Assembly (NCBI GenBank): GCA_041657045.1
Contig: JBBACM010000001.1
Coordinates: 13,259 to 77,258 of the forward strand
DNA from: Minisyncoccota bacterium
Lineage (GTDB): Bacteria > Patescibacteriota > Minisyncoccia > Minisyncoccales > Minisyncoccaceae
DNA length: 64,000 nucleotides
Reading direction: 5' to 3'
Below, one piece after another: positions 10,448 to 58,986 of the stretch. Within the stretch, counting starts at the first letter, position 1. Each line of letters opens with the position of its first letter. A model generated the notes under the pieces. That model searched no databases. It worked only from the letters and a program-made list of their open reading frames with translations, and had not been told where the DNA came from. Made by a program: the position numbers and the translations under genes.

Positions 10448-10518
10448 GGGCCCGTAGTCCAACGGTAGAATACTGCATTCGCATTGCAGAGATATGAGTT
10501 CAATTCTCATCGGGTCCA
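10448..10518 (+). tRNA. tRNA-Ala (anticodon CGC), no encoded CCA
   Basis: Hand-folded cloverleaf: acceptor GGGCCCG/CGGGTCC with G3:U70 (the Ala identity pair), anticodon loop TTCGCAT, T-arm ATGAG-TTCAATT-CTCAT, discriminator A. Confidence 0.75.
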
Positions 10519-10708
10519 CAGTTTATTAATTAATCATATGATTAAACATAAACAAATAGAAATTATTGATTCGGCTATCGTTGAAAGTCCTAAAAAGAGA
10601 TGTATTGGTTAAATCTTATAAATAGATTACGTCCAGAGGCCATATTGAGCTAAAAGAAAGCTACGACTAAGCAACTGAAGATAACATTAAGTTTAAAAAG
10701 TCCAAAAA

Positions 10709-10724
10709 TGTTTCACGTGAAACA
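10709..10724. repeat. Palindrome TGTTTCACGTGAAACA, copy 3, 5 nt upstream of tRNA-Val
   Basis: Perfect 16-bp palindrome. Confidence 0.9.
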
Positions 10725-10729
10725 TTTGA

Positions 10730-10800
10730 GGACCTGTAGTTTAATGGTAGAACGCCACCTTCACACGGTGGTGGTATAAGTTCGATTCTTATCAGGTCCA
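10730..10800 (+). tRNA. tRNA-Val (anticodon CAC), no encoded CCA
   Basis: Acceptor GGACCTG/CAGGTCC, D-arm GTTT-AATGGTA-GAAC, anticodon loop TTCACAC, T-arm ATAAG-TTCGATT-CTTAT. Confidence 0.8.
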
Positions 10801-10909
10801 CAGTTTGTCCAGAATCGTGTCCAGAATTGTCCCCAATTTGTCCAGAATGTCCACAGTTTGTCCAGAATCGTGTCCAGAATGTCCAGAAAGAATTAAATTT
10901 GTCCAGAAT
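10798..10909 (+). repeat. Degenerate tandem array of GTCCAGAAT-type units (about 7 copies). It includes an exact 30-nt duplication (10798-10827 = 10851-10880) that begins with the last 3 nt of tRNA-Val.
   Basis: Read directly. The 12-mer GGTCCACAGTTT also follows tRNA-Ala. Confidence 0.85.
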
Positions 10910-10926
10910 GAAATAAAATAACAAAA

Positions 10927-10942
10927 TGTTTCACGTGAAACA
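10927..10942. repeat. Palindrome TGTTTCACGTGAAACA, copy 4, 5 nt upstream of tRNA-Pro
   Basis: Perfect 16-bp palindrome. Confidence 0.9.
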
Positions 10943-10947
10943 TCTAT

Positions 10948-11018
10948 CGGGATGTCATATAATGGCATTATGCAGGCTTCGGGAGTCTGTAATCCGGGTT
11001 CAAATCCCGGCATCCCGA
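10948..11018 (+). tRNA. tRNA-Pro (anticodon CGG), no encoded CCA
   Basis: Acceptor CGGGATG/CATCCCG with C1:G72 (typical of bacterial tRNA-Pro), anticodon loop TTCGGGA with G37, T-arm CCGGG-TTCAAAT-CCCGG. Confidence 0.7.
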
Positions 11019-11039
11019 CTATAATTAGTCTTAAAATAT

Positions 11040-18939: not shown

Positions 18940-19012
18940 GCCCCCGTAGCTCAATCGGATAGAGTGCTGGTCTTCGGAACCAGTGGTGCGAGTTCGAGTC
19001 TTGCCGGGGGCA
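18940..19012 (+). tRNA. tRNA-Arg (anticodon TCG), no encoded CCA
   Basis: Acceptor GCCCCCG/CGGGGGC, D-arm GCTC-AATCGGATA-GAGT, anticodon loop CTTCGGA, T-arm GCGAG-TTCGAGT-CTTGC. Confidence 0.75.
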
Positions 19013-19076
19013 CAAAACAGCTTGATTTTTTATAAAAAACAGGATATACTCCAGACACATAACAAAGTCAATTAAC

Positions 19077-19469
19077 ATGCTTAGAACAAAGACAAAAAGA
19101 CTAATCTTTGCTTCCGTATTGTTTTTTTTGTTTATAAGCTTTATGCCTGCTTTTGCCGCCTTGGTTACCTGCGGCAACGAAGGTCAGCCAGCTTGTACTC
19201 TAGATAACATGTTCGAAACATTGGTTAATGTGATTAATTTTGTTCTGTACGACATTGTTCCTCCATTGGCCGCATTCGGATTCGCCATGGCCGCGGTCAC
19301 TATGATGACTTCTAACGGAGATCCTGGCAAGTTCAAGCAGGGCAAAGACGCTATGATTACCATCGGAATAGGATTAATAATAATCTATCTCGCCTGGTTT
19401 ATAGTAAGCAGCTTCATTGAATTCTTAGGAGGAAAAGAGTGGACATTACAGTTTTTCAACAAGGAGTAA
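19077..19469 (+). CDS. VirB2/TrbC-like pilin (T4SS-type pilin): signal peptide plus two hydrophobic helices separated by a charged GDPGKFKQGKD loop
   Basis: Signal peptide ending AFA|A, the characteristic helix-loop-helix topology, and two N-terminal Cys. Shares its core module with the pilin-fusion genes at 26.2-31.0 kb. Confidence 0.55.
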   Translation: MLRTKTKRLIFASVLFFLFISFMPAFAALVTCGNEGQPACTLDNMFETLVNVINFVLYDIVPPLAAFGFAMAAVTMMTSNGDPGKFKQGKDAMITIGIGLIIIYLAWFIVSSFIEFLGGKEWTLQFFNKE

Positions 19470-19475
19470 AAATTG

Positions 19476-19547
19476 CCCCGTTAGCTCAGTTGGTAGAGCA
19501 GGAAGCTCTTAACTTCAAGGTCGTGGGTTCGAGTCCCTCACGGGGCA
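19476..19547 (+). tRNA. tRNA-Lys (anticodon CTT), no encoded CCA
   Basis: Acceptor GCCCCGT/ACGGGGC, D-arm GCTC-AGTTGGTA-GAGC, anticodon loop CTCTTAA, T-loop TTCGAGT. Confidence 0.7.
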
Positions 19548-19575
19548 CAGAAATATACAGTAATAATATAAACAT

Positions 19576-31479: not shown

Positions 31480-33429
31480 ATGAAAATAACAAATTTTTAT
31501 AAAATACTATTAATAGTTGCAGTGGCATTTATTATATTCCCGGCAGCTAACACGTACGCAGCTGATAATGTTGCTGTAATAGCAAACCCTGGATCTTGCG
31601 ATCTTCTTCTGCACCCTCTCGAATGTGTTTCAAGCGGAATAATAAACACTATTATTAATATCGCAGGAATTTTAGCGCCCGCCGCATTAAGGATAGGAGA
31701 ATATTTCCTTAACGCTGCCATTAGCGGTGATGTTTTAGGGGCTGGCTTCACTCCGGACAGCAACGAATATATCGCTACTGGATGGGGAATAGTCAGAAAT
31801 TTGGCCAATGCGGCGCTGGTAATAGGATTAGTTGTTATAGCTGTAGGTATAATTTTAGGATATCAAGAGAATCAAGCTAAAAAAATTCTACTTAATTTTA
31901 TAATTATCGCACTCTTAATTAACTTTACTCCGGTAATCTGCGGCTTTATTATAGATGGCGCAAACATACTTACAAAATCGATGATGACGGGAGGAATAGA
32001 CGATAGTTATTCAAAATCCATATCAAATCTATTCGTTATAATAGGGAATATGAAGGGTGGTTGGATTGATCAGCTTGCTCTCACGATAGTAGTAACATTT
32101 TTTTCATTGTTCGCAACAGTCATATATCTTTTATACGCCCTTCTTTTTTTCGGAAGAATTGTTATTCTTTGGATATTGGTCATTGTTTCTCCAATAGCCT
32201 TTGCCACAAAAGTATTTCCTCAATCAAAATACATAAGGAACTTTTTCCCGAGCGTAACTTATTGGGATGACTGGTGGGAAAGCTTTATCCAATGGTGTGT
32301 TATAGGAATTCCGGCAGGAATGTCGATATACCTTTCAAATACGATGATTGCAAAAATAGCAAGCACATCTAATTCTACAGCAGCAACCGAAGCAAATATA
32401 TTTGGAATATTAATCGGGTATTCGATTCCATTCATCTTCCTGCTTGCCGGATTCTTTATCTCTATTTCTTCAGGCGGAAAAGTTGGAACATTTGTGGGTG
32501 GAGTAGCAACTGGTGCATGGGCCGTTTCAGGAGGAAGGGCGGCAAATTGGGGTAGAGAAAAAATAAAAGCAGGCGGGGAATGGGTAGAGGGAAGAACTGC
32601 TGCTACCGGATCTTATATAAAAGAAGGTGCAGCGGGAATTGCTGGTGTTATAGCAATGGATAAAACAGATCAACCAAGACCACTGTCTGTATTTAATAAA
32701 GAAGATAGAGAAGCAGGAAGACAAGCAATATCGGGATGGAAAAAAAGAGTCGTTCAAGACACTCCTCTTAAATATTTAACCAACCCTCCAGCCTTAGAAA
32801 AAGACAAGGAGGCTGCTATGGAAAATTACAACAAAAATTGGAATCGTTATAATCAAAACGATAGAGATAAAATTGAAAAAATGCTTATCGATAAAGACAC
32901 TTCTTTGTTCTTGAAAGGAGGTATTGATAAAGATAAAACTCCCGAAGAAAATTCTAGAGAATACCAGAGAAGATTGGCTTCTGTTGGGCTACACGGGGGA
33001 GAAAAAACAAAATTTGAAGCTTATCTCCACGCCTCCGGAAATACTCAATTTGCCGGTATGGGAGGAATACAAGCGGTAAATGAATGGGCAACGAAAAATA
33101 AAATTGATGCTCCTAAAAAACTAAGATCAATGAGCGCAAAAGACGCTAGAGAAAAAATAGGTGCTGATGCTATAAGACAAAATCCAGAAATTCTTCGAAA
33201 TATGGGAGAAAAAGCAGCATTTAATATCTTACAGCAAGGATCAGTAGAGCAAAGAAAGGCGATTAAAGAAAAAACTATTGGTAGAGACAATGCGTTATTT
33301 ACAAAATACATGCAAGATCAGCTGAATATATCAACCGACAGGACATTAACCGAAGACCAAAGAGAAGAGGCAGAGATGAACTATAATAGATGTTATAAAA
33401 TAGCAGAAGAAGTACATATTAATACTTAA
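31480..33429 (+). CDS. VirB6/TrbL-like polytopic membrane protein (signal peptide, about 7 TM helices, Trp-rich loop, hydrophilic C-terminal ~300 aa)
   Basis: Topology and locus context. The N-terminal ADNVAVIANPGSCDLL...GIINTIINIAG segment echoes the pilin leader region. Confidence 0.45.
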   Translation: MKITNFYKILLIVAVAFIIFPAANTYAADNVAVIANPGSCDLLLHPLECVSSGIINTIINIAGILAPAALRIGEYFLNAAISGDVLGAGFTPDSNEYIATGWGIVRNLANAALVIGLVVIAVGIILGYQENQAKKILLNFIIIALLINFTPVICGFIIDGANILTKSMMTGGIDDSYSKSISNLFVIIGNMKGGWIDQLALTIVVTFFSLFATVIYLLYALLFFGRIVILWILVIVSPIAFATKVFPQSKYIRNFFPSVTYWDDWWESFIQWCVIGIPAGMSIYLSNTMIAKIASTSNSTAATEANIFGILIGYSIPFIFLLAGFFISISSGGKVGTFVGGVATGAWAVSGGRAANWGREKIKAGGEWVEGRTAATGSYIKEGAAGIAGVIAMDKTDQPRPLSVFNKEDREAGRQAISGWKKRVVQDTPLKYLTNPPALEKDKEAAMENYNKNWNRYNQNDRDKIEKMLIDKDTSLFLKGGIDKDKTPEENSREYQRRLASVGLHGGEKTKFEAYLHASGNTQFAGMGGIQAVNEWATKNKIDAPKKLRSMSAKDAREKIGADAIRQNPEILRNMGEKAAFNILQQGSVEQRKAIKEKTIGRDNALFTKYMQDQLNISTDRTLTEDQREEAEMNYNRCYKIAEEVHINT

Positions 33430-38835: not shown

Positions 38836-39306
38836 TTAAATTTTAGGTTTGACAATTACTTTCCTTTCTTCTCCTTCTCCGACGCTTTCGGTCGTCACAT
38901 CTTTTCTGTCCGCCAATTCCATGTGGACTATCCTCCTGTCAAAAGAAGAAGTAAAAGGGAGTTCTTTCTCTCTGCCTGTTCTTGATACTTCATCGGCCAC
39001 ACTCTGGGCTACATCTCTTAAATAATTTTCTTTATTCTTTTTGTAATTATCTATGTCTAAACTTAAATAAAAATCTTTATCAGTTTTCTTCTTTATTACC
39101 TTTCTTAAAAGTAATTGTATATCGGCCAAAACTAATCCCTGTTTTCCGATAAGAGCTTGAGCTTCAACTGTTTTAATGTTTATATCCAATACATCTTCGC
39201 CGTCCCTTTCTTCGGCTTTTCCTTCGACCTCAACCACAAAACCAACTTGAACAAAAAAGTCTTTAATAATTTCTTTAATGTTTTCCAGTTGTTCCTGGTC
39301 AATCAT
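38836..39306 (-). CDS. Jag/KhpB-like RNA-binding protein (KH plus R3H)
   Basis: KH-like N-terminus, R3H-like C-terminus, and position downstream of yidC. Confidence 0.65.
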   Translation of the reverse strand: MIDQEQLENIKEIIKDFFVQVGFVVEVEGKAEERDGEDVLDINIKTVEAQALIGKQGLVLADIQLLLRKVIKKKTDKDFYLSLDIDNYKKNKENYLRDVAQSVADEVSRTGREKELPFTSSFDRRIVHMELADRKDVTTESVGEGEERKVIVKPKI

Positions 39307-40013
39307 ATTCCTTTCTTATTAAATATTTTTCTCTGTTGGAAAATTGTAAAGACTGTTGTTATCAACCAATACAATCCTAAGGCTGCGGGAAGATTGTATA
39401 GAACGAAGAAGGTTATTAGGGGAATAAAGAAAACCATTTGCTTTGTTACCATTTCAGAAACTTGCGAAGCAGTATCCTTTGTGTCTGACTTCGGAGTAGT
39501 CGGTGTCCCAGTTTTAGCTTGGAAGAATTGAGCAACAGCGGTTATTACGGCTAGAATAATATTAGGCTTAGACAAATCTACAGTCAAAAAATATGTATTG
39601 ATGTTTTGAGGAAGAGAAATGAAAGAATAGATAAGGCTGGGGTCGGATATCTTTCCCCCTTCTTTAAATACGTAAAACAAGGCCCAGAGAATCGGTATTT
39701 GAATAAAGAGTAAGAATATTCCCGAAAAAGGATTGAATTTCTTTTCTTTATACAAAGCCATCATTTCTTCGGCCTGCTTTTGTTGATTATCTTTATTTCT
39801 TTTTTGTATTTCTTGAAGTCTTGGCTGTATTTCCGCCATAGCCTTCTGCGACTTTAAAGCCTTATCGTTTAAAGGGTTAGTTAAAAATTTAATTAAAAGT
39901 GTTAAGGCGATTACGGCTATGCCGAAATTATTTGTATAGACATATACCAGCACCAAAAAATTCAGCATCGGCTGATAAAGAATCGTATTGAAGATTAATG
40001 AAAAAATATTCAC
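39303..40013 (-). CDS. yidC: Membrane protein insertase YidC (short form)
   Basis: YidC/Oxa1 conserved TM core; rnpA-yidC-jag order. Confidence 0.8.
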   Translation of the reverse strand: MNIFSLIFNTILYQPMLNFLVLVYVYTNNFGIAVIALTLLIKFLTNPLNDKALKSQKAMAEIQPRLQEIQKRNKDNQQKQAEEMMALYKEKKFNPFSGIFLLFIQIPILWALFYVFKEGGKISDPSLIYSFISLPQNINTYFLTVDLSKPNIILAVITAVAQFFQAKTGTPTTPKSDTKDTASQVSEMVTKQMVFFIPLITFFVLYNLPAALGLYWLITTVFTIFQQRKIFNKKGI

Positions 40014-40019
40014 AATAGT

Positions 40020-40352
40020 TTATTTTATCTTTTCTAAAAGATTGGCGATGTCTTTCTCTATTTCCTCGTAGCCGGCGTCTTTAATGGGGGATAGGGCGAT
40101 AATGATTATTCTCATTCCATCTTTAATCTCTTTTTTTCTTAGTCTGACAATCTCCCTCATTCTTCTTTTCGCTTTGTTTCTAATAACGGCCAGTTTGGAA
40201 ACTTTTTTACTGACCACAAATCCTATCTTTGTCTTCTCATCTTCTTCCTTAGAATACTTTAAAAAAACGTAATTGCCTTTAAGTGTTTTTCCTTCCTTAA
40301 AAACCGCCTCGAATTCTTTCTTTCTTTTTAACCTGTTTTCTTTAGGCAACAT
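40020..40352 (-). CDS. rnpA: RNase P protein component
   Basis: Basic ~110-aa protein (KENRLKRKKEF...) located between rpmH and yidC. Confidence 0.8.
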   Translation of the reverse strand: MLPKENRLKRKKEFEAVFKEGKTLKGNYVFLKYSKEEDEKTKIGFVVSKKVSKLAVIRNKAKRRMREIVRLRKKEIKDGMRIIIIALSPIKDAGYEEIEKDIANLLEKIK

Positions 40353-40359
40353 ACAAAAA

Positions 40360-40494
40360 CTAAACGCTTAATTTGGCTCTACCTTTTCTTCTTCTTTTGG
40401 CCAAAATAGTTTTTCCGCTCTTGGTTTTGCTTCTTTCTAAGAATCCGTGAGCCCTGACTCTTTTCTTTTTTTTCGGTTGATATGTTTGACTCAT
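40360..40494 (-). CDS. rpmH: 50S ribosomal protein L34 (44 aa: [44 protein letters not shown])
   Basis: Manual translation; not in the ORF track because it is below 60 aa. Canonical L34 ending. Confidence 0.85.
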
Positions 40495-40708
40495 ATTGTT
40501 ATTTTTTTATTCTGTTTTATATATAGAACTATATCAAAAAAACAGGCTCTGGTCAATCAATTTTAACACTAAAAATAGGACAATTTTTATTAACCCTTTG
40601 TCCACAAATTATCCACACAGACTATATAAACCATTGATAATACTACTCCTTTTGCTTTCTTGACAATATGTAAGGTATAATAATAGTAATATTATTAAAC
40701 GGGGTATT
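40495..40708. other. Putative oriC part 1: DnaA boxes TTGTCCACA (40598-40606) and TTATCCACA (40609-40617) between rpmH and dnaA
   Basis: Perfect consensus DnaA box and conserved origin synteny. Confidence 0.55.
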
Positions 40709-42067
40709 ATGACTAACGAAGAACTCTGGCAGACAGTATCGTCTCAAATCCAATTAAATATCTCTCCGGCGAATTTCGCCACATGGTTTGCAAACACCAA
40801 AATATCTTCGGTCGAAGATAATGTCGTGACTGTTTCTGTCCCTAACTCTTTTTCAAAAGAATGGATGGAACAGAAATACCATAAAGATATTTTCAAAATA
40901 CTAAAATCTCTGGATGAAAACATTAAAGACATACAATATGTGGTTAATCCCGTTAATATAAAAATTAATGTCGGTGGAAAAAAAGGACTTAAAAAAGAAA
41001 ACTCTATTGAGCAGATGGGATTTTCAGAATTGGAAGTAAGCAAAGAAACAAACCTTAATCCTAAATATACTTTTGATAATTTTATAACCGGACCATTTAA
41101 TGAAATAGCTTACGCCGCTGCGATGGCCGTAGTCGAAGAGCCGGGGAAAAGCTACAACCCCTTATTCATATATGGAGATGTCGGGCTAGGTAAAACTCAT
41201 TTAATCCAGGCCATAGGGAATAAAATAAAAGAAAACGACCCAGATAAAAAAGTTAAATACATCCCAGCCGAAAAACTTATCTCCACCATAGTTAATGCCA
41301 TAAGAGGCCAAAGCGTTGAAGAATTAAAAAAGAATTTACGCAACATTGATGTATTAATAGTTGACGACATTCAATTTCTCGCCGGCAAGGACAAAACTCA
41401 GGAAGAATTTTTCCACACCTTTAATTCTCTTTACCAAAAAAATAAACAAATAATTCTTTCTTCAGATAGACATCCTAATAACATTCCTGCCATAACCGAA
41501 AGATTAAAATCAAGATTCGGCGGGGGGATGATTGCTGATATAAATATCCCTGACTATGAAACTAGAATGGCCATTTTAAAACAAAAGGCTGAAGAAAAAG
41601 GCGTTGTTGTCCCTGCTGATGTTTTAGAGTATATCGCCAATAATATCCAAAAAAATGTAAGAGAGTTGGAGGGAGCTATAAGCCGTTTGATTATATACAA
41701 AAAAACAAATGGAAAAACTGTAACAATCGAAGACGCCAAAAAGCTCTTAAAGAATATCATTGTTTCGCCGGCGAAAGTAACAAATTATAAAAAAATAATT
41801 GAGGCAATTACTGAATTTTACGATATTCCCTTCGGAAACATGTTCTTCAGCTCAAGGAAAAAAGAGTTCGCTAGACCAAGACAATTAGCCATGTTTTTAC
41901 TAAAAAAAGAGTTAAAAATGTCATACTCTGAAATCGGTAGAAAATTCGGAGGAAAAGACCACACGACAGTCATTCACTCTTGTCAGTTAATAGAAAAAGA
42001 AGACGAAGAAAACGAAAAAATACACCAAGAAATAGAATTAATCCTTCAAAGAATATACAGTAAATAG
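40709..42067 (+). CDS. dnaA: Chromosomal replication initiator DnaA
   Basis: AAA+ Walker A GDVGLGKTHL and the C-terminal DNA-binding domain. Confidence 0.95.
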   Translation: MTNEELWQTVSSQIQLNISPANFATWFANTKISSVEDNVVTVSVPNSFSKEWMEQKYHKDIFKILKSLDENIKDIQYVVNPVNIKINVGGKKGLKKENSIEQMGFSELEVSKETNLNPKYTFDNFITGPFNEIAYAAAMAVVEEPGKSYNPLFIYGDVGLGKTHLIQAIGNKIKENDPDKKVKYIPAEKLISTIVNAIRGQSVEELKKNLRNIDVLIVDDIQFLAGKDKTQEEFFHTFNSLYQKNKQIILSSDRHPNNIPAITERLKSRFGGGMIADINIPDYETRMAILKQKAEEKGVVVPADVLEYIANNIQKNVRELEGAISRLIIYKKTNGKTVTIEDAKKLLKNIIVSPAKVTNYKKIIEAITEFYDIPFGNMFFSSRKKEFARPRQLAMFLLKKELKMSYSEIGRKFGGKDHTTVIHSCQLIEKEDEENEKIHQEIELILQRIYSK

Positions 42068-42297
42068 TGTGGAAAACATGAGGGAATAGAAGGTAAGGGG
42101 TGCTGACAAAATCGAGCACAAAAAAGTTATCAGACTAACCACGCAGAAATAGTCCCCAAGATGTCCCGAGTTATCCACAAAACAATTATTTCAAAAATCA
42201 TTTAAAACAAAAGAAAAACAATCATTAATAAATATTATCCACAAAAATACAATAATTAATAGTAATAATAAAAAATAAATCTTATTTTTAAAAACAT
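42068..42297. other. Putative oriC part 2: DnaA boxes TGTGGAAAA (42068-42076, reverse orientation), TTATCCACA (42170-42178) and TTATCCACA (42234-42242) in the AT-rich dnaA-dnaN spacer
   Basis: Read directly from the sequence. Confidence 0.55.
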
Positions 42298-43425
42298 ATG
42301 AATTTTACAATGCTTACCAAAGAATTAAAAAAGGGTGTAGGGGTAGTTGAAAAAATAACAGGAAAAAATTTAACTCTTCCTATTTTGGATAATTTATTAA
42401 TTGAGGCCACTCCTAATTTTTTGAAAATATCTTCAACTGACCTTGAGGTTGGAATGCAGTGGTGGGGATTATGTAAAACAGAAAAAGAAGGGAAAATAGC
42501 AGTCCCAGCAAGATTTATTAACCAGCTTATCGGGTCTTTGCCCGATGACAAGGTTACCATCAAAGAAAAGAGCAACTCCTTAATAATAGAGTCGAAAAAT
42601 CTCAAAACACAAATTAAAGGATTTTCCGCTGAAGATTTTCCAATTATACCTTCTTTTTTGAAAGAAATATACATTGAGGTAGACGGAAAGAAACTGAAAG
42701 ACGGATTAATGAGCGTTGTGGACATTGCAAGCCTTTCTCAAATCAGGCCGGAGATATCAGGAATATATCTATCTTTTGGAAAAGATTCGGTTAAATTAGT
42801 AGCTACGGACAGCTTCAGGTTGGCTGAAAAAATAATTAATTTGAAGTCCGGATTTAAAAATTTATTTAATAGAGAAGTGAATTTTATATTGCCTCAAAAA
42901 ACAATTAAAGAATTAATCAATATTTTGCCTGAAGAAGAAAAGGGAATAAGAATTTATCTTTCAGAATCTCAAGTTTTGTTCGAAACATTTTTACCTAATT
43001 CTGAGCATCCGGAAATAAATCTCATTTCTCGCCAAATAGAAGGAGAGTATCCCTCCTATCAGGAAATTATTCCCAAGGCCAGTAAAACAAAAATTATTTT
43101 AAACAAAGAAGAATTTGCTAAGCAAATTAAAACAGCCGGGCTGTTCGGAGGAAGGACAAATGAGGTTGTCTTGAATGTGAGCGCAAAAGAATTGGAAATA
43201 AAAAGCCAGGATTCTGAAATAGGAGAGAGCGAGTCGGTTGTGGCAGCAAAGATTGAAGGAGAATCTTTAAAGGTATCTTTTAATTGGAAATTTATTATTG
43301 ACGGATTATCAAATATTAAAAGTTCGGAAATAAGTTTTGAGCTTCAGGGAGGAGACGGCCCGGCAGTAATTAGACCGACGGGCGATGCGAGCTATCTGTA
43401 CGTGATTATGCCGATAAAGATATAA
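42298..43425 (+). CDS. dnaN: DNA polymerase III beta sliding clamp
   Basis: Three-domain clamp architecture, directly after dnaA. Confidence 0.9.
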   Translation: MNFTMLTKELKKGVGVVEKITGKNLTLPILDNLLIEATPNFLKISSTDLEVGMQWWGLCKTEKEGKIAVPARFINQLIGSLPDDKVTIKEKSNSLIIESKNLKTQIKGFSAEDFPIIPSFLKEIYIEVDGKKLKDGLMSVVDIASLSQIRPEISGIYLSFGKDSVKLVATDSFRLAEKIINLKSGFKNLFNREVNFILPQKTIKELINILPEEEKGIRIYLSESQVLFETFLPNSEHPEINLISRQIEGEYPSYQEIIPKASKTKIILNKEEFAKQIKTAGLFGGRTNEVVLNVSAKELEIKSQDSEIGESESVVAAKIEGESLKVSFNWKFIIDGLSNIKSSEISFELQGGDGPAVIRPTGDASYLYVIMPIKI

Positions 43426-45416: not shown

Positions 45417-46625
45417 ATGAAAATAATAACAGACGAAAACAAAATAGACGAGATATTAAACAGGGGGACAGAAGACATTATTGATAAAGAAAATCTTAAA
45501 AAGAAGTTAATGTCGGGCAAGCAACTGAATATCAAATTCGGCATTGACCCGACCGGGCCAAGGATCCATTTGGGCAGGGCTACCGCCTTAATGAAATTAA
45601 GGGATTTTCAAGACCTGGGGCATAGAATTACTTTAATCATCGGAGATTTTACCGCTTTAATCGGTGATGCTTCAGACAAAGATTCGATTAGAAAGCCCTT
45701 AACCGAAAAAGAAATTAGAAATAATTTAAAAGATTATCTCAGTCAAATAGGGAAGATTTTGGATTTAAAAAAAGTAGACGTTAGGCATAATAAGGATTGG
45801 TTCGGTAAAATGAAAATCGAAGAGTTGATTAAGCTTTCTATGAGCTTTACTGCTCAGCAGATGATACAAAGAAGAAACTTTAAAGAAAGATGGGACAGTG
45901 CAAAGCCAATCGGAGTTCATGAATTATTGTATCCAATATTGCAAGGATATGATTCGGTTGTCATCAAATCCGATTTAGAAATAGGAGGATTTGATCAGCT
46001 ATTTAATTTAAAGGCTGGAAGAGAGTTGCAAAAAATATTCAATCAAGAGCCGCAAGACGTGATGACCTTAAGAATGATATATGGATTAGATGGCAGGAAA
46101 ATGTCTACTTCTTGGGGCAACGTTATTAATATTTTAGACGAACCTAAAGATATGTTCGGAAAATTGATGAGCTTAAGAGACGAGCTGATTATCGGATACT
46201 TTGAATCTTGCACCAGGGTTCCTATGATACAAATAAACGAATTCAAAAACAGCTTAGAAAGTAAAACAGTCAACCCAAAGGAAGTTAAAAAGATTTTGGC
46301 CAAAGAAATAATATCTTTTTTCTACGGGGCAAAGCTATCCGAAGCAGCGGAAGAAGAATTTGAACAAGTGTTTGAAGAAAAAAAACTTCCATCGGAAGTA
46401 GAGGAAGTCAGAATTGAAGAAGAAAAAATAAATGTCCAAGAATTTTTAGTAAAATTGGGGCTATCCACTTCAAAAGGAGAAGCTAAAAGGTTGATAGGGC
46501 AAGGAGGGGTAAGATTAATTAAAGGAGAAAACATTCAAGAAATTAATGATTGGCAATTAGAAATACAAATAGAAAAGGGAATGATTGTCCAGGTTGGGAA
46601 AAGGAACTTCAGAAAAATAGTTTAA
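45417..46625 (+). CDS. tyrS: Tyrosyl-tRNA synthetase
   Basis: Class I HIGH-type motif (PRIHLG), KMSKS-type motif (KMSTS) and a C-terminal S4 domain. Confidence 0.8.
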   Translation: MKIITDENKIDEILNRGTEDIIDKENLKKKLMSGKQLNIKFGIDPTGPRIHLGRATALMKLRDFQDLGHRITLIIGDFTALIGDASDKDSIRKPLTEKEIRNNLKDYLSQIGKILDLKKVDVRHNKDWFGKMKIEELIKLSMSFTAQQMIQRRNFKERWDSAKPIGVHELLYPILQGYDSVVIKSDLEIGGFDQLFNLKAGRELQKIFNQEPQDVMTLRMIYGLDGRKMSTSWGNVINILDEPKDMFGKLMSLRDELIIGYFESCTRVPMIQINEFKNSLESKTVNPKEVKKILAKEIISFFYGAKLSEAAEEEFEQVFEEKKLPSEVEEVRIEEEKINVQEFLVKLGLSTSKGEAKRLIGQGGVRLIKGENIQEINDWQLEIQIEKGMIVQVGKRNFRKIV

Positions 46626-47098
46626 TTGAACTTGCATTTATCGGCACAGCAAATAGCTACAGCTAAAGCATCGGCCGCGTCATCAGGCTTAGGAATTTTG
46701 TCCAGGCTTAAGAGTTTTTTGACCATTTCTTGAACCTGGTTTTTTGTTGCTTTACCGTATCCTGTTACCGCTGTTTTGGCCTGCATAGGAGTGAGTTCAA
46801 GTATGGGAACATTCTTTTTAGCTAAAGTAAAAATAATAACGCCTCGAGCTTGGCTTACTGGCATGGCTGTTTTTAAGTTTTTAAAAAAGAAAAGGCTTTC
46901 CACGGCAGCCATTTCCGGTTTGTGTTTTTTAATGACTTGGCTTAAATCAAAATTGAGTTGTTTTAATCTTTCTCCCGGGTTAAGCTTCGGAGATGTTTCA
47001 ATCACTCCGTAATCAAGGCACGTCATTTTTTTCTTTTTGTAGTCGATTACCCCGAAGCCGGTAGTGGCCGTGCCCGGGTCAATGCCTAAAATTATCAT
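46622..47098 (-). CDS. ruvC: Holliday junction resolvase RuvC
   Basis: The ILGIDPGTATTGFGV motif. Confidence 0.9.
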   Translation of the reverse strand: MIILGIDPGTATTGFGVIDYKKKKMTCLDYGVIETSPKLNPGERLKQLNFDLSQVIKKHKPEMAAVESLFFFKNLKTAMPVSQARGVIIFTLAKKNVPILELTPMQAKTAVTGYGKATKNQVQEMVKKLLSLDKIPKPDDAADALAVAICCADKCKFN

Positions 47099-47808
47099 AT
47101 ATTGGTATATATGTTTTGCACATCATCATTTTCGTCCAGGGATTCAAATAACTTTTGATTTTTTTCTTTTACGTCTTCGTCGATAGAAGTATTTTCTTTT
47201 GGAACCCATTCTAAATTAGATGATTCTATTTTCAGTTTTCTTTCTTCCAGTGCTTTTTTTGTTTTTTCTAATTCTTCTAGTTTAATGTAGATATAGAGAG
47301 TGTTTTCTTGCCAGTCAATATCTTCTGCTCCGGCTTCAATTGCAATCAATTCCATTTCTTCTTTGTCTTTATTCGAAGCGTCTATTGAGATAACACCCTT
47401 TTTTTCGAACATCCATTTAATTCCTCCTTCGTTAACATACTTTCCCCCTCTTTGGGTTAGAATTAATTTTATCTCTCCTAAAGTCCTGTTTTTATTATCA
47501 GTTATGCCTTCAATTATGAAAGCGGTTCCTCCAGGTCCATAGGCTTCCATTAAAAATTCTTCATATGAAAAACCTTCCAGCTCTCCCGAACCTTTTTTAA
47601 TGGCTTTTTCAATGCTGTCAGCCGGCATATTCATTGATTTGGCTTTTTCTACGGCTGACCTTAATTTAGGGTTGAATACTATGTCAGAGCCTCCGTCCTT
47701 GGCGGCAACCGAGATTTCTTTTGAAAGCTTGGAGAAGGTTTTACTTCTCTTTGCATCTTCGGCGCCTTTTTTTATTTTAATGTTGTGGAAATGGGAATGT
47801 CCGCTCAT
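47095..47808 (-). CDS. YebC/PmpR-family transcriptional regulator
   Basis: YebC family sequence (MSGHSHFHNIK...). Confidence 0.85.
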   Translation of the reverse strand: MSGHSHFHNIKIKKGAEDAKRSKTFSKLSKEISVAAKDGGSDIVFNPKLRSAVEKAKSMNMPADSIEKAIKKGSGELEGFSYEEFLMEAYGPGGTAFIIEGITDNKNRTLGEIKLILTQRGGKYVNEGGIKWMFEKKGVISIDASNKDKEEMELIAIEAGAEDIDWQENTLYIYIKLEELEKTKKALEERKLKIESSNLEWVPKENTSIDEDVKEKNQKLFESLDENDDVQNIYTNI

Positions 47809-47884
47809 ATGTTTATTTCTTTACTATATGTTTGCATATTAGCTTAAAAAGTGAAAATATTCAATTTATATAATCTTAGTCAAG

Positions 47885-47910
47885 GAAAACCCCGCTATTT
47901 GCGGGGGCTT
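47885..47910 (-). terminator. Intrinsic terminator downstream of the FBP aldolase/phosphatase gene (minus-strand reading GCCCCCGC-aaata-GCGGGG-UUUU)
   Basis: 6-bp GC stem plus U-run on the minus strand. Confidence 0.65.
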
Positions 47911-47913
47911 TGT

Positions 47914-49026
47914 TTATTTCCTGATTTCAAATCTTTTTTCCAGCTTTTCCATTTTACTTACTATCCCGCCGTACTCCAATTCGCTGTAGGGGAGCATGGC
48001 GTTTCCAAAGAATCCTTGTCTTCTAATTTCTATGGCTTTTTTGGAAATATTATCTCTGACGTGATCCCAGAACGGATGGTCAAAGGCATCAACAGCTTCG
48101 GTTAATTTTCCGTGGTGAACACAATAAGCGGCGCAGGAAACTAAGGGAGGACCGTCAAAGAAAGAAGTGGGGCAGTTTTGCTTGACCGGCATCAATGGTC
48201 CGGTATGGCTTCCGCGCATAAAGCCGGCGACATATGGTCCGATTGGATAAGGAGAAAGAATTTCTCCGGTTGCGGGAAAAGCTCCTTGAGTTCTAACCAA
48301 TTGAATGGGGTCGTCTTTCCCTGTATATTTTCCGGCGATATTTCTTAGTCTGGTTGTGGAAACGGCAGCAGCTTTTTCTCCAGTCTCCCTCGAAACTATT
48401 TTTTCAATAACGAATCTTTCCGGGTCTCTTAAAAGTGCGGCGATATCGTAAGATTCTTCGGGAGCATTTAAAGAGATAACTCTGTCGGCTTCAACATATG
48501 CTACATCCATAATATCAAAGCGGAATCCCTTAGCCATATTAGGAGAGAGGATTAGTCCGGAACAATACATTGGGTCTGTAAAAGCGAGATAAAGGGGAAG
48601 GTTATATGCTCCCGGGTCTGTTTTGTCGGCAGCGAAGAAAAGAATCGGCTCGTTTGGCCTTTCTTCAAATTCCATTTCACAGACGGCTGGTCCAAGCCCC
48701 TTCACGTTTCCCGAGAAGGCGTCTTTTAATAAGTCTTGGCCTGCTCCGTATAGCCCCTGGTCTTTGGCCGCTTCAGTTCCGGCCTTAAAAGCGTCCCAAG
48801 CTAAATGATGAATTTCGTCGTTGTTTTCTCCCTTAGTATGGGTGCAGAGAATAGCAATATCGTCTCCCGTGTAGGTGATGCGCCAATCGATAAGCATTCC
48901 TTTGTGGTTCTGTTCAATATATTCTTTTACGGTTTTGACGACTCTTTCGCTCGGCTTAATATGTCCTCCAATACTTCCAATATCGGCCTTAATTGCTGTG
49001 ACTGTTATTTTATCTCCTTTTTCCAT
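47914..49026 (-). CDS. fbp: Fructose-1,6-bisphosphate aldolase/phosphatase (class V FBPase, archaeal type)
   Basis: N-terminal VTAIKADIGSIGGH and overall similarity to bifunctional FBPA/P. Confidence 0.75.
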   Translation of the reverse strand: MEKGDKITVTAIKADIGSIGGHIKPSERVVKTVKEYIEQNHKGMLIDWRITYTGDDIAILCTHTKGENNDEIHHLAWDAFKAGTEAAKDQGLYGAGQDLLKDAFSGNVKGLGPAVCEMEFEERPNEPILFFAADKTDPGAYNLPLYLAFTDPMYCSGLILSPNMAKGFRFDIMDVAYVEADRVISLNAPEESYDIAALLRDPERFVIEKIVSRETGEKAAAVSTTRLRNIAGKYTGKDDPIQLVRTQGAFPATGEILSPYPIGPYVAGFMRGSHTGPLMPVKQNCPTSFFDGPPLVSCAAYCVHHGKLTEAVDAFDHPFWDHVRDNISKKAIEIRRQGFFGNAMLPYSELEYGGIVSKMEKLEKRFEIRK

Positions 49027-49090
49027 ATATTTTAATTTTATTTTTATATTTTAATTATATACCTTTTTTTATAGGAGAAAAGTCAAATTA

Positions 49091-50107
49091 TTAAAAAAGC
49101 TTCTTTTGGTTTTTAGGCAAGGGGATATTTAAGTGTTCATATGCCAGCTTAGTTGCATTCCTGCCTTGAGAGGTTCTTTTTATCAAGCCAAGCTGGATTA
49201 AATACGGTTCATAGATATCAAGAATAGCATTCTTTTCTTCCGAGGTTGCGGCGGAAAGAGATTGTAGTCCGGCTGGCCCGCCTTCGAATTTGTTAATAAT
49301 TACTTCGAGTATTTTTCTATCGGCCGGTTCAAGACCCATGCCGTCGACTTCCAAAAAATCAAGAGCCTTTTTTGCAATCTCTTCGGTTATTTTTCCTTGT
49401 CCTTCTATTTCGGCAAAGTCTCTCAGCCTTTTTAAAAGTTTATTGGCTATTCTCGGAGTGCATCTTGCGCGTTTGGCTATTTCTTCTATTGCTCCTTTTT
49501 CAATTTCAATATTTAATATTTTAGCCGAACGCTTTATTATCTCTTCTATTTCTTTAACATTGTAATAATTCAATTGGAAGATTGCTCCGAACCTGCTTCT
49601 CAGTGGAGAAGAGATCAAATCTAATCTTGTTGTTGCTCCGACCAAAGTAAAGCGGGGAATTTGTATATCAATATTTTTAGCCATCGGACCTTTTCCTAAA
49701 ATCAGATTTAGCCTGAAGTCTTCCATGGCTGAGTATAGATATTCTTCGACAAACCTATTTAATCTATGGCATTCGTCGATGAAAAGAAAATCTCCTTCGT
49801 TCAAGTTTGTTAGGAGGGCGATGAGGTCTCCCGATTTTTCAATTACCGGACCTGTCGTGATTTTAATATTCGCTCCTGATTCTTTTGCAATCAAGTGAGC
49901 AAGGGTTGTTTTCCCTAAACCGGCCGGTCCGTAGAAAAGAATATGGTCCGGAGCTTCTTTTCTTTGTTTCGCCGCGTCAATCATAACTCGGAGATTTTTT
50001 TTGACCCTGTCTTGCCCGATATAATCCATCCAATCTCTGGGTCTCAGAGCAGAATTGATGAATTCCTCGTCCGGATTAGGTTGTGGGGGAAAGCTCTTGA
50101 CAGGCAT
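49091..50107 (-). CDS. ruvB: Holliday junction DNA helicase RuvB
   Basis: AAA+ GPAGLGKTTLA motif and a winged-helix C-terminus. Confidence 0.95.
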   Translation of the reverse strand: MPVKSFPPQPNPDEEFINSALRPRDWMDYIGQDRVKKNLRVMIDAAKQRKEAPDHILFYGPAGLGKTTLAHLIAKESGANIKITTGPVIEKSGDLIALLTNLNEGDFLFIDECHRLNRFVEEYLYSAMEDFRLNLILGKGPMAKNIDIQIPRFTLVGATTRLDLISSPLRSRFGAIFQLNYYNVKEIEEIIKRSAKILNIEIEKGAIEEIAKRARCTPRIANKLLKRLRDFAEIEGQGKITEEIAKKALDFLEVDGMGLEPADRKILEVIINKFEGGPAGLQSLSAATSEEKNAILDIYEPYLIQLGLIKRTSQGRNATKLAYEHLNIPLPKNQKKLF

Positions 50108-50151
50108 TTTGATGTGTGTTATGTTATTTAGGCTTCCAAAAATGAACGATT

Positions 50152-50280
50152 ATTGAACTGGGGGGAAGGAAATTTCTTTAGTTAACGGATAATTTGGCTC
50201 GCGCTGGGTTACTCCTCGGGAAATTTCTTTAGCTTAGCCCTAACGCTAACAAGGACCCCCAGTTCAGGAATCGTTTTTTT
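50152..50280 (+). ncRNA. Candidate structured element or small RNA. Terminal 11-bp inverted repeat GAACTGGGGGG / CCCCCAGTTC (50155-50165 and 50256-50265) encloses two direct repeats GGAAATTTCTTTAG(T/C)TTA(A/G)C and is followed by a T7 run.
   Basis: Read directly. Located between pilB-like and ruvB (both minus-strand) with no ORF. Function and strand are uncertain. Confidence 0.3.
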
Positions 50281-50281
50281 G

Positions 50282-51586
50282 TTACCCGACGACTCTTTTT
50301 ACTTCTTCCATTGTCGTTACTCCTTTTAATATTTTAATCAGTCCGTCTTGTTTCATCAGAGTCATTCCTTTTTTAATCGCAAGTTTTTCCATGGCCGAGG
50401 TTGAAGGGGAAGTGAGGATAAAGTCTTGCATTTCATCGTCGATGGTCATAGCTTCAAAGATTCCGATTCTGCCTTTGTATCCAGTGAAATTACAATATTC
50501 ACAACCCTTAATATTTGCTACGAGGATATCTGGTTTTAGTTCTGGCATGTCTACGCCTTGAGGAAGTTCTTCAAGGTCTTTTTTAATCTCTTCAAAAAGT
50601 TCGCTTGTGATGGGCTTCATTTCGGCGCATTTGGAGCAGACTTTTCTTACCAGTCTTTGGGCGATACAGACATTGATTGCCGGAGCGATATTTACCGCCT
50701 TTTCTCCCAAAGCTTGCAGACGGGCGATTGTTCCAGCGGCGTCATTAGTATGAAGGGTGGATAAAACGAGGTGTCCGGTTAAAGCCGCTTGAAGCGCGAT
50801 TGAAGCGGTTTCCAGATCTCTTATTTCTCCGACAAGAATAGCATCGGGGTCTTGTCTGACAATTGATTTTAGGCCGGCAGCGAAATCATACCCTTTTTTA
50901 GGATTAACCTGGGTCTGGGAAATTCCATCCAAGCGATATTCAATAGGATCTTCAATTGTAACAACTTTTATTTCAGGATTTCTTATTTTTTTTAAAAAAG
51001 CGTACAGGGTTGTTGTTTTACCAGAACCGGTAGGACCGGTGACGATAATCATACCGTTAGGTTTTTCGGCCTGGACATTAAATATTTCGTAAAGATCTTT
51101 TCTTAATCCTAAATCTTCAAGGCTGATAAGGTTTTTTGGATTAAGAACCCTCATAACAATAGTTTCTCCGTATTCGGTAGGAAGAGTCGAAACCCTGATT
51201 TCTACTTCTTCAACTTTGTCGTTTCTGTTTAATATTATGGAAAATCTGCCATCCTGTGGCTTGTCTTCAATATTCAGTTTTAATCCGGAAAGGAGTTTTA
51301 TTCTTGAAACTATACTTTGATGCTTTTGCAAATCAAAAGAAACGACTTCCTGCAAGACTCCGTCTACTCTCACTCTTAAGGTTGAGCCACTTTCGATAGC
51401 CTCAATGTGCATATCTGAACTATCAAGGATGATGGAGCCGAACATCAGCGCTTTTAAAAGGATAGAAACGTCTTTTGTTGAAAGCTCCTCCGCTTTAATT
51501 TTTAAAGAAGGAATGTTCGTTATCTCTTTTTCGAACTTTTCACTTAGCTCCTTTTCGATTTCTATTTTTTCAGTTATTGTTTCCAT
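50282..51586 (-). CDS. PilB/GspE-family type II/IV secretion ATPase (short form, no N-terminal GSPII domain)
   Basis: Walker A GPTGSGKTTT, Asp/His boxes, and the C-terminal tetracysteine CxxC...CxxC. Confidence 0.8.
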   Translation of the reverse strand: METITEKIEIEKELSEKFEKEITNIPSLKIKAEELSTKDVSILLKALMFGSIILDSSDMHIEAIESGSTLRVRVDGVLQEVVSFDLQKHQSIVSRIKLLSGLKLNIEDKPQDGRFSIILNRNDKVEEVEIRVSTLPTEYGETIVMRVLNPKNLISLEDLGLRKDLYEIFNVQAEKPNGMIIVTGPTGSGKTTTLYAFLKKIRNPEIKVVTIEDPIEYRLDGISQTQVNPKKGYDFAAGLKSIVRQDPDAILVGEIRDLETASIALQAALTGHLVLSTLHTNDAAGTIARLQALGEKAVNIAPAINVCIAQRLVRKVCSKCAEMKPITSELFEEIKKDLEELPQGVDMPELKPDILVANIKGCEYCNFTGYKGRIGIFEAMTIDDEMQDFILTSPSTSAMEKLAIKKGMTLMKQDGLIKILKGVTTMEEVKRVVG

Positions 51587-51590
51587 ATTT

Positions 51591-52670
51591 TTATTTTAAG
51601 CAAGAAAATATTTTATCTCTTGCCGTGTTTATAGATGTTTCTTCTGTTAAAAAGAGAGCGCCGTTGCCTTTGGAAACTCCTTTAAAGCTGTTTACTATTT
51701 TTTCGATTGAAGACTTATTGTCGGAATAGAAGATTCCCTTAACCGAAAGAGGAGAAGTTCTGCTCTCCCACAAAAGAAGGAAAGAGGGTATTTTAAAGAA
51801 GTTTTTAACTTTTTCTACAGTAAAGGCCAAATCTTTTGAAGTGGCATTACTGTCAATCATGTTTTTTTCAGAAAGGGCCGAGACGTATACATTTTCTTTT
51901 TCGACAAAGTTGATGTTTTTTAAAACCAATTCAAGAATTTTATTCTGCGGTCCGCTTGATTCTAAAAGACTTAAATCTCCTCCGTGTTCGAAAAGCCACT
52001 TTATAGTCGGTAGGTTTTTTTTGTTTTTAATATTTTTCGGAGAGGAGGTAAGTCCGTATAAGAGAAAGTTGGCGACATCTTTATTTAAATATTCGTTGCC
52101 CATTTGTTTTAACAGACAGGAAATCTTTTGTGATAAAGATTGTTCGTCTTCGATAAGATTATATTCGCCGTAGTTTTGATTATTCAAATCATTGTCGATA
52201 TTAACTACTGTGCAGGCATATAGCTGATCCAGGCTGTCGCTCAGCAAACCTTCGACTTCTTGGAATTCTTCAATGCCGATAGTTATTAAGATATCATAAT
52301 TAGGAGATGTATCAGACAAAAGATGTTCCATCCCCGAGATTATTTTATAGGAAAAACTTTCATTATTTACTTCTCCGTTTTTGGGAGTTAGATATAAGTC
52401 GATGCCATCGTCATTTTTCTCATAATAAACCTCGGAGACATCTTCTTTGAAAGAGATATGGAACTTTTTGTGTTCCTTATTTTTTATCAAATTAGCTATT
52501 TTTTCGGGAATTTTTTCAACGGGGAAGAAAATTCTTTTATTGGTGTTTTTAAGTGCAAAAAAAAGAGCCAAAGTCGCTCCTATGGCATCGTCGCTTGCAT
52601 TAGTTTTAGTTAAAATACCGATGTTTTTGGCATTTTCTATAATGTTTTTTAAGCCTAATATTTCCTCCAT
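51591..52670 (-). CDS. DHH/DHHA1-family phosphoesterase-like protein (NrnA-like) with a degenerate DHH motif
   Basis: Motif I-like SDDAIGATLAL. Motif III reads NIDND rather than IDHH. Confidence 0.45.
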   Translation of the reverse strand: MEEILGLKNIIENAKNIGILTKTNASDDAIGATLALFFALKNTNKRIFFPVEKIPEKIANLIKNKEHKKFHISFKEDVSEVYYEKNDDGIDLYLTPKNGEVNNESFSYKIISGMEHLLSDTSPNYDILITIGIEEFQEVEGLLSDSLDQLYACTVVNIDNDLNNQNYGEYNLIEDEQSLSQKISCLLKQMGNEYLNKDVANFLLYGLTSSPKNIKNKKNLPTIKWLFEHGGDLSLLESSGPQNKILELVLKNINFVEKENVYVSALSEKNMIDSNATSKDLAFTVEKVKNFFKIPSFLLLWESRTSPLSVKGIFYSDNKSSIEKIVNSFKGVSKGNGALFLTEETSINTARDKIFSCLK

Positions 52671-58413: not shown

Positions 58414-58986
58414 ATGAAATCAATGATAAGTCATATCTACGGTAAAATCATATATAAGGATGACAAAAAAGCTATTCTTGATAAGAGCGGGATAGGCTTT
58501 GAGGTCTTTTTAGCCCCTTCTGACTTAAGAAATTTGAAGGTTGGAGACGAGAGAGACGTTTATACCTTTCTATTTTTAGGAGAAAAAGTACTTGAATTAT
58601 ATGGTTTTTTGACTCCGGAAAGATTGGAATTGTTTAAAATATTAAAAGGGGTTTCGGGGGTAGGTCCCAAAACAGCCATGGGACTATCAGTGGCTGGTTC
58701 TTTGGAAAAGTTAAAAGATTCTTTGGAGCAGGGAGAGCTACCCGAAGACGTTAAGGGGGTAGGGGTGAAAAGATTACAGAAGATACTTTTAGAAATTACG
58801 GGGAAGATAAAAGAAGTTAAAAAGATTTCTCCGAAGAAGAAAATAACCAAAGACGATGTTTTTGATGCCCTGGTTTCTTTAGGATTTAACAAGCAAGACG
58901 TGGCCGATGCTGTTGCCCAGGTTCCTGAAGAAATCGTCGGAGCGGAAAATAGATTAAAAGAAGCGTTAAAATATTTAGGGAGATGA
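58414..58986 (+). CDS. ruvA: Holliday junction DNA helicase RuvA
   Basis: OB-fold N-terminus (MISHIYGKI) and HhH motifs (GVSGVGPKTA). Confidence 0.9.
   Translation: MKSMISHIYGKIIYKDDKKAILDKSGIGFEVFLAPSDLRNLKVGDERDVYTFLFLGEKVLELYGFLTPERLELFKILKGVSGVGPKTAMGLSVAGSLEKLKDSLEQGELPEDVKGVGVKRLQKILLEITGKIKEVKKISPKKKITKDDVFDALVSLGFNKQDVADAVAQVPEEIVGAENRLKEALKYLGR

Follow-up and report, generated by a model that had tools for sequence, protein, structure and literature searches.

A candidate gene for a conserved structured RNA of about 150 nt between pilB-like and ruvB genes in Paceibacteria

The gap between a ruvB gene and a gene for a T2SSE/PilB-like ATPase in a Minisyncoccota genome probably contains a gene for a structured RNA. 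We analyzed a 64,000-nt stretch of this genome (here called the window, to which all coordinates refer unless another locus is named). The explanation that we favor, and regard as likely overall, is that positions 50097-50280 constitute a self-contained gene on the plus strand, encoding an RNA of ~150 nt that belongs to a Paceibacteria family without a match in Rfam. The signals of the gene, the fold of the RNA, the strand that is read, the purifying selection, the single copy and the distribution of the family are each demonstrated by comparison of sequences. We suggest more tentatively, and with a confidence that falls a little short of even, that the RNA acts in trans as a stable and probably protein-bound species.

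The gap is 174 nt in length, and houses an inverted-repeat element that had been pointed out in a first-pass annotation made from the sequence. Both flanking genes lie on the minus strand (Table 1), as stated there, and the RNA gene on the plus strand is therefore opposite to both. It is convergent with the pilB-like gene, and overlaps the start region of a ruvB-fbp-yebC-ruvC operon. The G+C content of the window is ~37%, and the relatives of its RuvB are found in metagenome-assembled genomes of Candidatus Paceibacterota / Minisyncoccales. The minus-strand run of ruvB, fbp, yebC and ruvC extends over 46622-50107, where fbp (47914-49026) encodes an archaeal-type fructose-1,6-bisphosphate aldolase/phosphatase (PF01950). 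The ruvA gene lies 8 kb away on the plus strand (58414-58986); the usual adjacency of ruvA and ruvB is thus broken, and the RNA gene occupies the normal position of ruvA. The region 39303-43425 contains yidC, rnpA (40020-40352), dnaA (40709-42067) and dnaN (42298-43425), which suggests that replication starts at around 40-41 kb, some 9 kb away from the RNA gene. In that case the RNA gene would be read in the direction of replication, and pilB and ruvB would be head-on to it.

Several other features of the window were recorded. A minus-strand ORF of 359 aa (51591-52670) is found upstream of the pilB-like gene, with no match in Pfam or NCBIfam. It is retained with pilB in all relatives having the window type of RNA (type 1), at 37-80% identity; in more distant genomes it is missing upstream of pilB, and nusA and tig are found there instead. 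Five tRNA genes fall into two clusters, 10448-11019 (Ala-CGC, Val-CAC and Pro-CGG) and 18940-19548 (Arg-TCG and Lys-CTT). There is an ORF of 1645 aa on the minus strand (583-5520), another of 649 aa on the plus strand (31480-33429) that matches nothing in Pfam or NCBIfam, and a gene for a TraG/VirD4-like P-loop ATPase (PF19044; 37029-38804, plus strand).

Table 1. Positions of the genes, predicted transcription signals and elements of RNA structure in the window.
Feature	Position	Strand	Remarks
ruvB	49091-50107	minus	
T2SSE/PilB-like ATPase gene	50282-51586	minus	
-35 box TTGACA	50097-50102	+	promoter scan; inside ruvB codons 2-4 (other strand)
Extended -10, TGT-TATGTT	50117-50125	+	17 nt past the -35 box
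Predicted primary transcript, ~150 nt	50131-50280	+	5' end from -10 position, 3' end from U-tract
Perfect arms GAACTGGGGG and CCCCCAGTTC	50155-50164; 50256-50265		repeat finder
P1 outer	50144-50151 with 50269-50276	+	compensatory UA/CG and AU/GC changes (RNAalifold, pair counts)
P1 inner	50153-50164 with 50256-50267	+	arms of the first-pass annotation
P3a	50168-50178 with 50218-50228	+	the two "direct repeat" copies
Asymmetric internal loop UAGUUAAY	50179-50186, opposite UC 50216-50217	+	near-invariant unpaired bases (alignments)
Distal P3	50187-50215	+	most conserved module of the family; core common to distant versions
P3b	50187-50189 with 50213-50215	+	
P3c	50192-50198 with 50203-50209	+	tandem U-G/G-U pairs
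Tetraloop UCGC	50199-50202	+	varies among relatives
P4 hairpin UUAGC-CCUAAC-GCUAA	50234-50249	+	predicted
P1 3' strands	50256-50267 inner, 50269-50276 outer	+	right arm of the first-pass annotation
U-tract	50274-50280	+	with P1, predicted intrinsic terminator

The element had been described as having GC-rich inverted-repeat arms of 11 bp. The arms are indeed present, but their perfect pairing is 10 bp in length and the sixth G (50165) is unpaired. The pairing extends outward, and the repeat finder gives 25-nt arms (50140-50164 and 50256-50280) with 84% complementarity. A 14-nt direct repeat, GGAAATTTCTTTAG, occurs exactly in two copies (50168-50181 and 50219-50232); the proposed extension of it, (T/C)TTA(A/G)C, fits the second copy (CTTAGC) but not the first, which reads TTAACG. 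The interpretation as internal direct repeats was a misreading. The two copies make up helix P3a, one as its 5' strand and the other as its 3' strand; the helix happens to have a near-palindromic sequence in this organism (GAAAUUUC), and relatives conserve the pairing and not the repeat. The GC-rich core GGCTCGCGCTGGG is found at 50196-50208, and corresponds to the tip of arm P3, a tandem G-U helix beneath a variable tetraloop. The run of seven T residues is present as reported. Folding prediction, which had been proposed as a check, gives a structured molecule, yet the signal from the single sequence is modest, with a minimum free energy (MFE) of -43 kcal/mol and a z-score of -2.7. With one mismatch allowed, the arm motif is not rarer in the window than chance. 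The proof that the element is more than a chance occurrence is comparative, from alignment of related sequences, and not single-sequence.

Close relatives were fetched through RuvB alone, with RuvB identities of 70-87%. Poor conservation in relatives had been named as a sign against a functional element; in fact all 16 of them carry the element in the syntenic position directly upstream of ruvB. At the nucleotide level their copies are 71-91% identical to that of the window, compared with 79-91% for codon positions 1 and 2 of ruvB and 41-55% for position 3. The conservation of the element is thus equal to that of codon positions 1 and 2 and far above that of position 3, indicating purifying selection at the level of the aligned sequences. 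A pattern scan of metagenome contigs yielded 55 further loci, which score 118-153 bits with a covariance model of the window type (R1), except for one 5'-truncated copy at 86 bits. R1 matches the window at 50139-50279 with 150.9 bits. In the collection-wide scan there was one match per contig, even where the contigs are about 360-656 kb in length, and we conclude that there is one copy per genome. No second copy was found in the 64-kb window, and BLAST gave no match in phage and plasmid collections. The core pattern TGGTTYCGACTGGGN{3,6}CTC has 26 matches in viral contigs, which we rejected because by a rough estimate about 26 are expected by chance; R1 gave a single unrelated weak match there (E 0.59). 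The tip of P3 (50197-50212) shares 15-16 nt of identity with sequences upstream of ruvB in four termite-gut Defluviitaleaceae loci (L020, L022, L032 and L036, at about 2835-2881), in the opposite relative orientation. These loci are interrelated and were counted once, and the identity is probably due to chance.

The RNA body is preceded by a predicted near-consensus sigma-70-type promoter, and promoters and terminators were counted in the 55 distinct copies with enough flanking sequence. All 55 have TTGACA without mismatch, followed after a 17-nt spacer by TATNNT, and TGT precedes the -10 box in 54. In two loci, L063 and L077, the RNA promoter is unchanged even though the RNA and ruvB are 2 kb apart, with unrelated genes in between. 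As the promoter is intact where there is no adjacent ruvB, the -35 box is not there because of ruvB. The insertions between the RNA gene and ruvB, of 1-2 kb, differ between the two loci. One locus (L077:6553-7559) has a pair of neighboring ORFs, of 183 and 152 aa, and the other (L063:5939-7670) a 198-aa ORF plus an opposite-strand 381-aa ORF; the gap beside the RNA promoter seems to be a hot spot for insertion.

A U-run adjacent to helix P1 is found in 23 of the 55 copies, including that of the window. A separate GC-rich hairpin with a T-run on the RNA strand is present in 31, and one copy has neither type of terminator. The separate hairpin often has no preceding A-run, making it one-directional. 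At the predicted terminator the transcript would stop 1-2 nt short of the last codon, the stop, of the convergent pilB-like gene. Taken together, promoter, structured body and terminator predict an independent transcription unit. A small ORF within the RNA (ATGAACGATTATTGA) was discounted; it has only four codons, and its frame is not conserved in the alignment.

Alignment of the close copies gives the fold of the RNA as a three-way junction with 46 base pairs in RNAalifold, in which P1, a helix of 20 bp, encloses the long arm P3 and the small hairpin P4. Over 53 distinct sequences, 99.0% of the cells at the 46 predicted pairs form standard pairs, and 12 pairs exhibit changes on both sides, in 142 cells. 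Not one of 500 shuffles reached the observed values of pairing and covariation, and sliding the register lowers the paired fraction to 40-63%. The column pairs with the highest mutual information are predicted Watson-Crick pairs. One C-G pair of inner P1 is replaced by A-U or U-A in 14 of the 53 sequences, and five of the 11 pairs of P3a have changes on both sides. The five pairs of P4 never vary in the type-1 copies, and hence receive no support from covariation; distant versions have a hairpin of other sequence at this position. P3c contains three consecutive U-G pairs followed by one G-U in the window copy, beneath a tetraloop that is found as UCGC, UUCG, UCCG, UUAU or UUUU in relatives. 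Mutual information revealed no pseudoknot or tertiary pairing, and all column pairs that score high but do not belong to the structure reflect subfamilies and are not Watson-Crick.

The fold also reports on the strand. Among the predicted pairs there are many G-U, and several of these are invariant. The invariant G-U pairs exist only on the plus strand, and on the minus strand at least nine G-U positions become A-C mismatches. The alifold energy is -83.6 kcal/mol for the plus strand compared with -55.6 kcal/mol for the reverse complement, and the single-sequence MFE is lower on the plus strand in all 53 sequences. The conserved G-U pairs and the weaker fold of the reverse complement thus indicate that the RNA is read from the plus strand, opposite to both neighbors. 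The element has its own predicted promoter and terminator, is read on one strand and has a fold maintained by compensatory change, which are the properties of a stand-alone structured small RNA gene. An independently transcribed small RNA was among the candidates of the first-pass annotation, and it is the one that the conserved promoter, the terminator, the covariation and the strand-specific G-U pairs bear out.

The family extends well beyond the close relatives. R1 gave weak matches, with E from 1e-4 to 0.4, in seven distant Paceibacteria loci whose RuvB identity is about 51-53%; position and strand of the matches are unchanged there. All seven of these loci, retrieved through RuvB, have a version of ~160 nt with a four-way junction in the gap between pilB and ruvB, as does every locus retrieved through PilB with enough flanking sequence (Yanofskybacteria and other Parcubacteria). 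In these versions P1 has 20-26 bp, with the sequence AAYCUGUAGGCAA / UUGCCUACAGRUUA; in L131 the segment CUGUAGG/CCUACAG is changed in compensatory fashion to CCGCAGG/CCUGCGG. There is an extra variable hairpin, P2, plus a P4 hairpin, and the same distal P3 module, GAUGGKUAAYYUGGYUYCGRCUGGNUUAUACCUC. Promoters are of consensus type, and in several copies a U-run follows P1. Single sequences fold by themselves into the four-way junction, that of L028 at -58.7 kcal/mol with z = -5.3.

A second model, R2, was built only from the distant four-way versions. It matches the window copy at 50146-50276 with a score of 29.9 bits (E 1e-4) and scores as high as 50 bits with other copies of type 1, so R1 and R2 each detect the versions of the other. 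R2 found nothing in the ruvB loci of Gracilibacteria, Peribacteria, Firmicutes and Chlamydiae, nor in L017 and L018. By these sequence comparisons, the window RNA is a reduced member, with no P2, of a family present throughout the sampled Paceibacteria (Parcubacteria). The order of pilB, opposite-strand RNA and ruvB likewise appears ancient in the comparison, being kept from Minisyncoccales to Yanofskybacteria, where RuvB is only about 51% identical.

Two features of the distant loci may be recorded here. Some four-way versions have a small GC hairpin and a U-run between the promoter and the RNA body, e.g. AUCCCUAUAGGGUUCAUAGGGAUUUUU, located on the minus strand at approximately L129:3860-3905, L128:3880-3925, L131:3925-3965, L138:3880-3920 and L134:5570-5600. 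This leader hairpin resembles a terminator or attenuator, and the window version has none. Two PilB homologs are unusually long, with 911 and 965 aa (L133:2312-5045 and L134:2501-5398), and match the T2SSE domain twice around a large insert that is possibly an intein or an inserted domain; in L134 the RNA still follows directly after pilB.

How might such an RNA work? The near-consensus promoter would start transcription near 50131, and P1 followed by U7 would terminate the transcript. The distal P3 module (the GAUGG/CCUC helix, a 2x3 loop and the tandem G-U helix) would, together with the junction, be the surface that is recognized. As for the long P1, it would terminate transcription and shield the ends, and might be a processing site for RNase III. 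The invariant sequence lies in the internal loops, the tandem G-U helix and much of P1, the tetraloop, P3a and P2 vary freely, and no single-stranded stretch is conserved across the variants. This pattern is that of an RNA recognized by a protein or some other macromolecule rather than of a small RNA that pairs through a seed, and it is from the pattern of conservation that we infer a protein-bound role in trans.

The main rival is that the gene is a regulator in cis, acting by antisense or interference, and we consider this unlikely as the whole explanation. A strong constitutive promoter could lower or uncouple the expression of pilB and ruvB through collision of polymerases or cleavage of duplex by RNase III, with the fold serving mainly for stability; the RNA would match, base for base, any transcript that reads through from pilB and any ruvB 5' UTR of more than about 25 nt. 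Such a system could tune genes of DNA uptake and recombination. The arrangement is suggestive. The gene order is retained across the great distances noted above, the -35 box lies within the first codons of ruvB, and the predicted 3' end of the RNA lies right beside the stop codon of pilB. The distance from the ruvB ATG to the predicted RNA start is only about 24 nt, and inspection by eye and a promoter scan found no ruvB promoter on the minus strand there or inside the element. On the pilB strand, the terminator hairpin of many copies lacks a T-run, and transcripts of pilB should hence continue through the RNA gene. Given the strict placement and the absence of a recognizable ruvB promoter, a local role in cis fits at least as naturally. 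Yet RNA and promoter remain intact in L063 and L077, where the RNA and ruvB are kept apart by unrelated genes, one of which is on the opposite strand; coupling to ruvB is thus not obligatory. Moreover, a pure antisense function needs neither invariant loop bases, nor tandem G-U pairs, nor compensatory changes throughout the fold. Like cis-antisense and convergent-promoter systems, the RNA runs opposite to two co-oriented genes and lies between them, its promoter overlapping the start of one and its terminator abutting the end of the other. Unlike them, it is intergenic and not opposite a coding region or ribosome-binding site, and its fold is kept by compensatory change across a whole bacterial class. 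Action in cis and in trans are not mutually exclusive.

It is much less probable that the RNA is a divergent form of a known housekeeping RNA, either the "missing" SRP (4.5S) RNA of Parcubacteria or a 6S-like RNA that binds polymerase. In E. coli 4.5S RNA, the symmetric loop with A-G-G opposite A-G-C-A binds the M domain of Ffh. The window RNA shares with SRP 4.5S RNA (RF00169, ~110-150 nt) its size, closure by a 5' G-run and 3' C-run, single copy and probably high expression, and its paired ends, strong predicted promoter and presence across the lineage are typical of the RNA of an RNP. However, it is branched rather than a single rod, and lacks the conserved symmetric and asymmetric loops. 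The GNRA (GGAA-type) tetraloop is missing, the sole long arm ending in a freely varying tetraloop, and the AGCA / A-G-G motif occurs in no variant; a U-G/U-G/G-U helix is found there, with flanking pairs that covary. No SRP model matched the window, L028, L129 or L134 sequences at E<=10. The first-pass annotation was correct in setting SRP RNA aside for want of the hallmarks of domain IV. With 6S RNA (RF00013) there is a likeness in the long closing helix formed by the ends, the apical stem and the strong promoter, and the four-way versions can be drawn as a closing stem, a center flanked by two small hairpins and an apical stem. But the large two-sided central bubble is absent. The 5' side of the type-1 junction has only 3-4 unpaired nt, leaving no central bubble or template strand, the four-way versions have almost no unpaired bases in the junction, and there is no match to a 6S model. 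Nelson and Stegen (2015) detected neither ffh nor ffs in 17 Parcubacteria genomes (PMC4508563). This would leave room for an undetected SRP RNA, but with ffh also missing there would be no partner left for it; the absence of ffs is itself a weak negative, since the RNA search was made by HMMER rather than with covariance models.

Other known classes fare no better. At E<=10 Rfam 15 gave no family match to the four variants (window, L028, L129 and L134), and at gathering thresholds the only matches in the whole window were the five tRNAs; the Rfam scan suggested in the first-pass annotation thus returned nothing for the element. Permissive searches with the element, three distant variants and eight whole loci gave scattered noise only (snoRNA, lncRNA and SAM-V, the last with 17.8 bits against a gathering score of 41). 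A search of the literature for a described CPR or Parcubacteria non-coding RNA of this type found none. tmRNA and tRNA are rejected by ARAGORN, which finds only the five ordinary tRNAs elsewhere in the window, and by Rfam, and the resemblance of UGGUUYCGACUGGG to the tmRNA 5' D-region or T-arm was treated as a coincidence, the pairing geometry being unlike that of a T-loop. Size, ARAGORN and Rfam are against 5S RNA. RNase P RNA, which measures about 200 nt or more and has a P4 pseudoknot with the conserved sequences CR-I and CR-V, is rejected by the size of ~130-160 nt, the lack of a model match at E<=10 and the lack of pseudoknot covariation. As rnpA is present, the genome should encode its RNase P RNA at another place; the RNase P RNAs of CPR bacteria are reported to be divergent (PMC8172020). 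A retron is excluded by the neighbors, which are RuvB, the T2SSE ATPase and the 359-aa protein with no reverse transcriptase, and by the lack of an ORF downstream on the RNA strand. A four-way RNA in place of RuvA was also rejected; ruvA is present, and the window version is three-way.

Least probable by far is an element of DNA or mRNA with no RNA gene of its own: a miniature inverted-repeat element or recombination site, both of them candidates in the first-pass annotation, a bidirectional terminator or insulator, or a minus-strand riboswitch in the ruvB 5' UTR. The long arms, the location immediately upstream of ruvB, and the A-run before P1 and T-run after it, which make the closing helix terminator-like on both strands in the window, might be read in this way. 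However, a mobile element is contradicted by the single copy at the same syntenic site in each genome and the empty phage and plasmid collections, nothing points to recombination where the constraint is on RNA pairing including G-U pairs, and a terminator does not need some 100 nt of interior conserved with covariation. The promoter and terminators face the plus strand, the A-C mismatches and far weaker fold affect the strand of ruvB, a P1 of 20-26 bp is too stable for the switch helix of a ligand-controlled riboswitch, and on the RNA strand there is no downstream gene for a leader to control, the pilB-like gene being convergent.

We return to a stand-alone structured small RNA, which is a familiar kind of bacterial RNA; the newness lies in the family, which appears to be undescribed, with no likeness in Rfam 15 and no description found in the literature. 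The closest parallels are raiA, ROOL and OLE, orphan structured non-coding RNAs of bacteria that emerged from the comparative surveys of Weinberg and Breaker. Like these, the RNA has a stand-alone gene, a covarying fold of several helices, invariant loop and junction bases, restriction to a lineage and a function that cannot be deduced from the sequence. It differs in having no match in Rfam 15, in being much smaller than ROOL or OLE, and in being confined to one syntenic slot in the tiny genomes of Paceibacteria.

The Paceibacteria or Parcubacteria, which are uncultured, account for a very large share of the bacterial tree. Their genomes have roughly 600-1000 genes, and to our knowledge very few regulators or non-coding RNAs have been described in them. 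Purifying selection comparable to that on protein, a consensus promoter and a fixed locus across the class make an important role likely. The two covariance models, R1 and R2, can be used for annotating the RNA, which offers a target for metatranscriptomics and for pull-downs in CPR co-cultures. A bolder idea, which we think rather improbable, is that Paceibacteria have a housekeeping RNP of their own with this RNA at its core, the RNA being essential and abundant in genomes of about 0.6 Mb that are reported to have no detectable SRP components. If this were true, the RNA might functionally replace a universal RNA, in an SRP-like or 6S-like manner, or it might serve a process found only in these episymbionts, for instance one that links recombination to the uptake of DNA by pili. 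The family would in this way provide a test of whether the Paceibacteria have replaced or lost universal RNPs.
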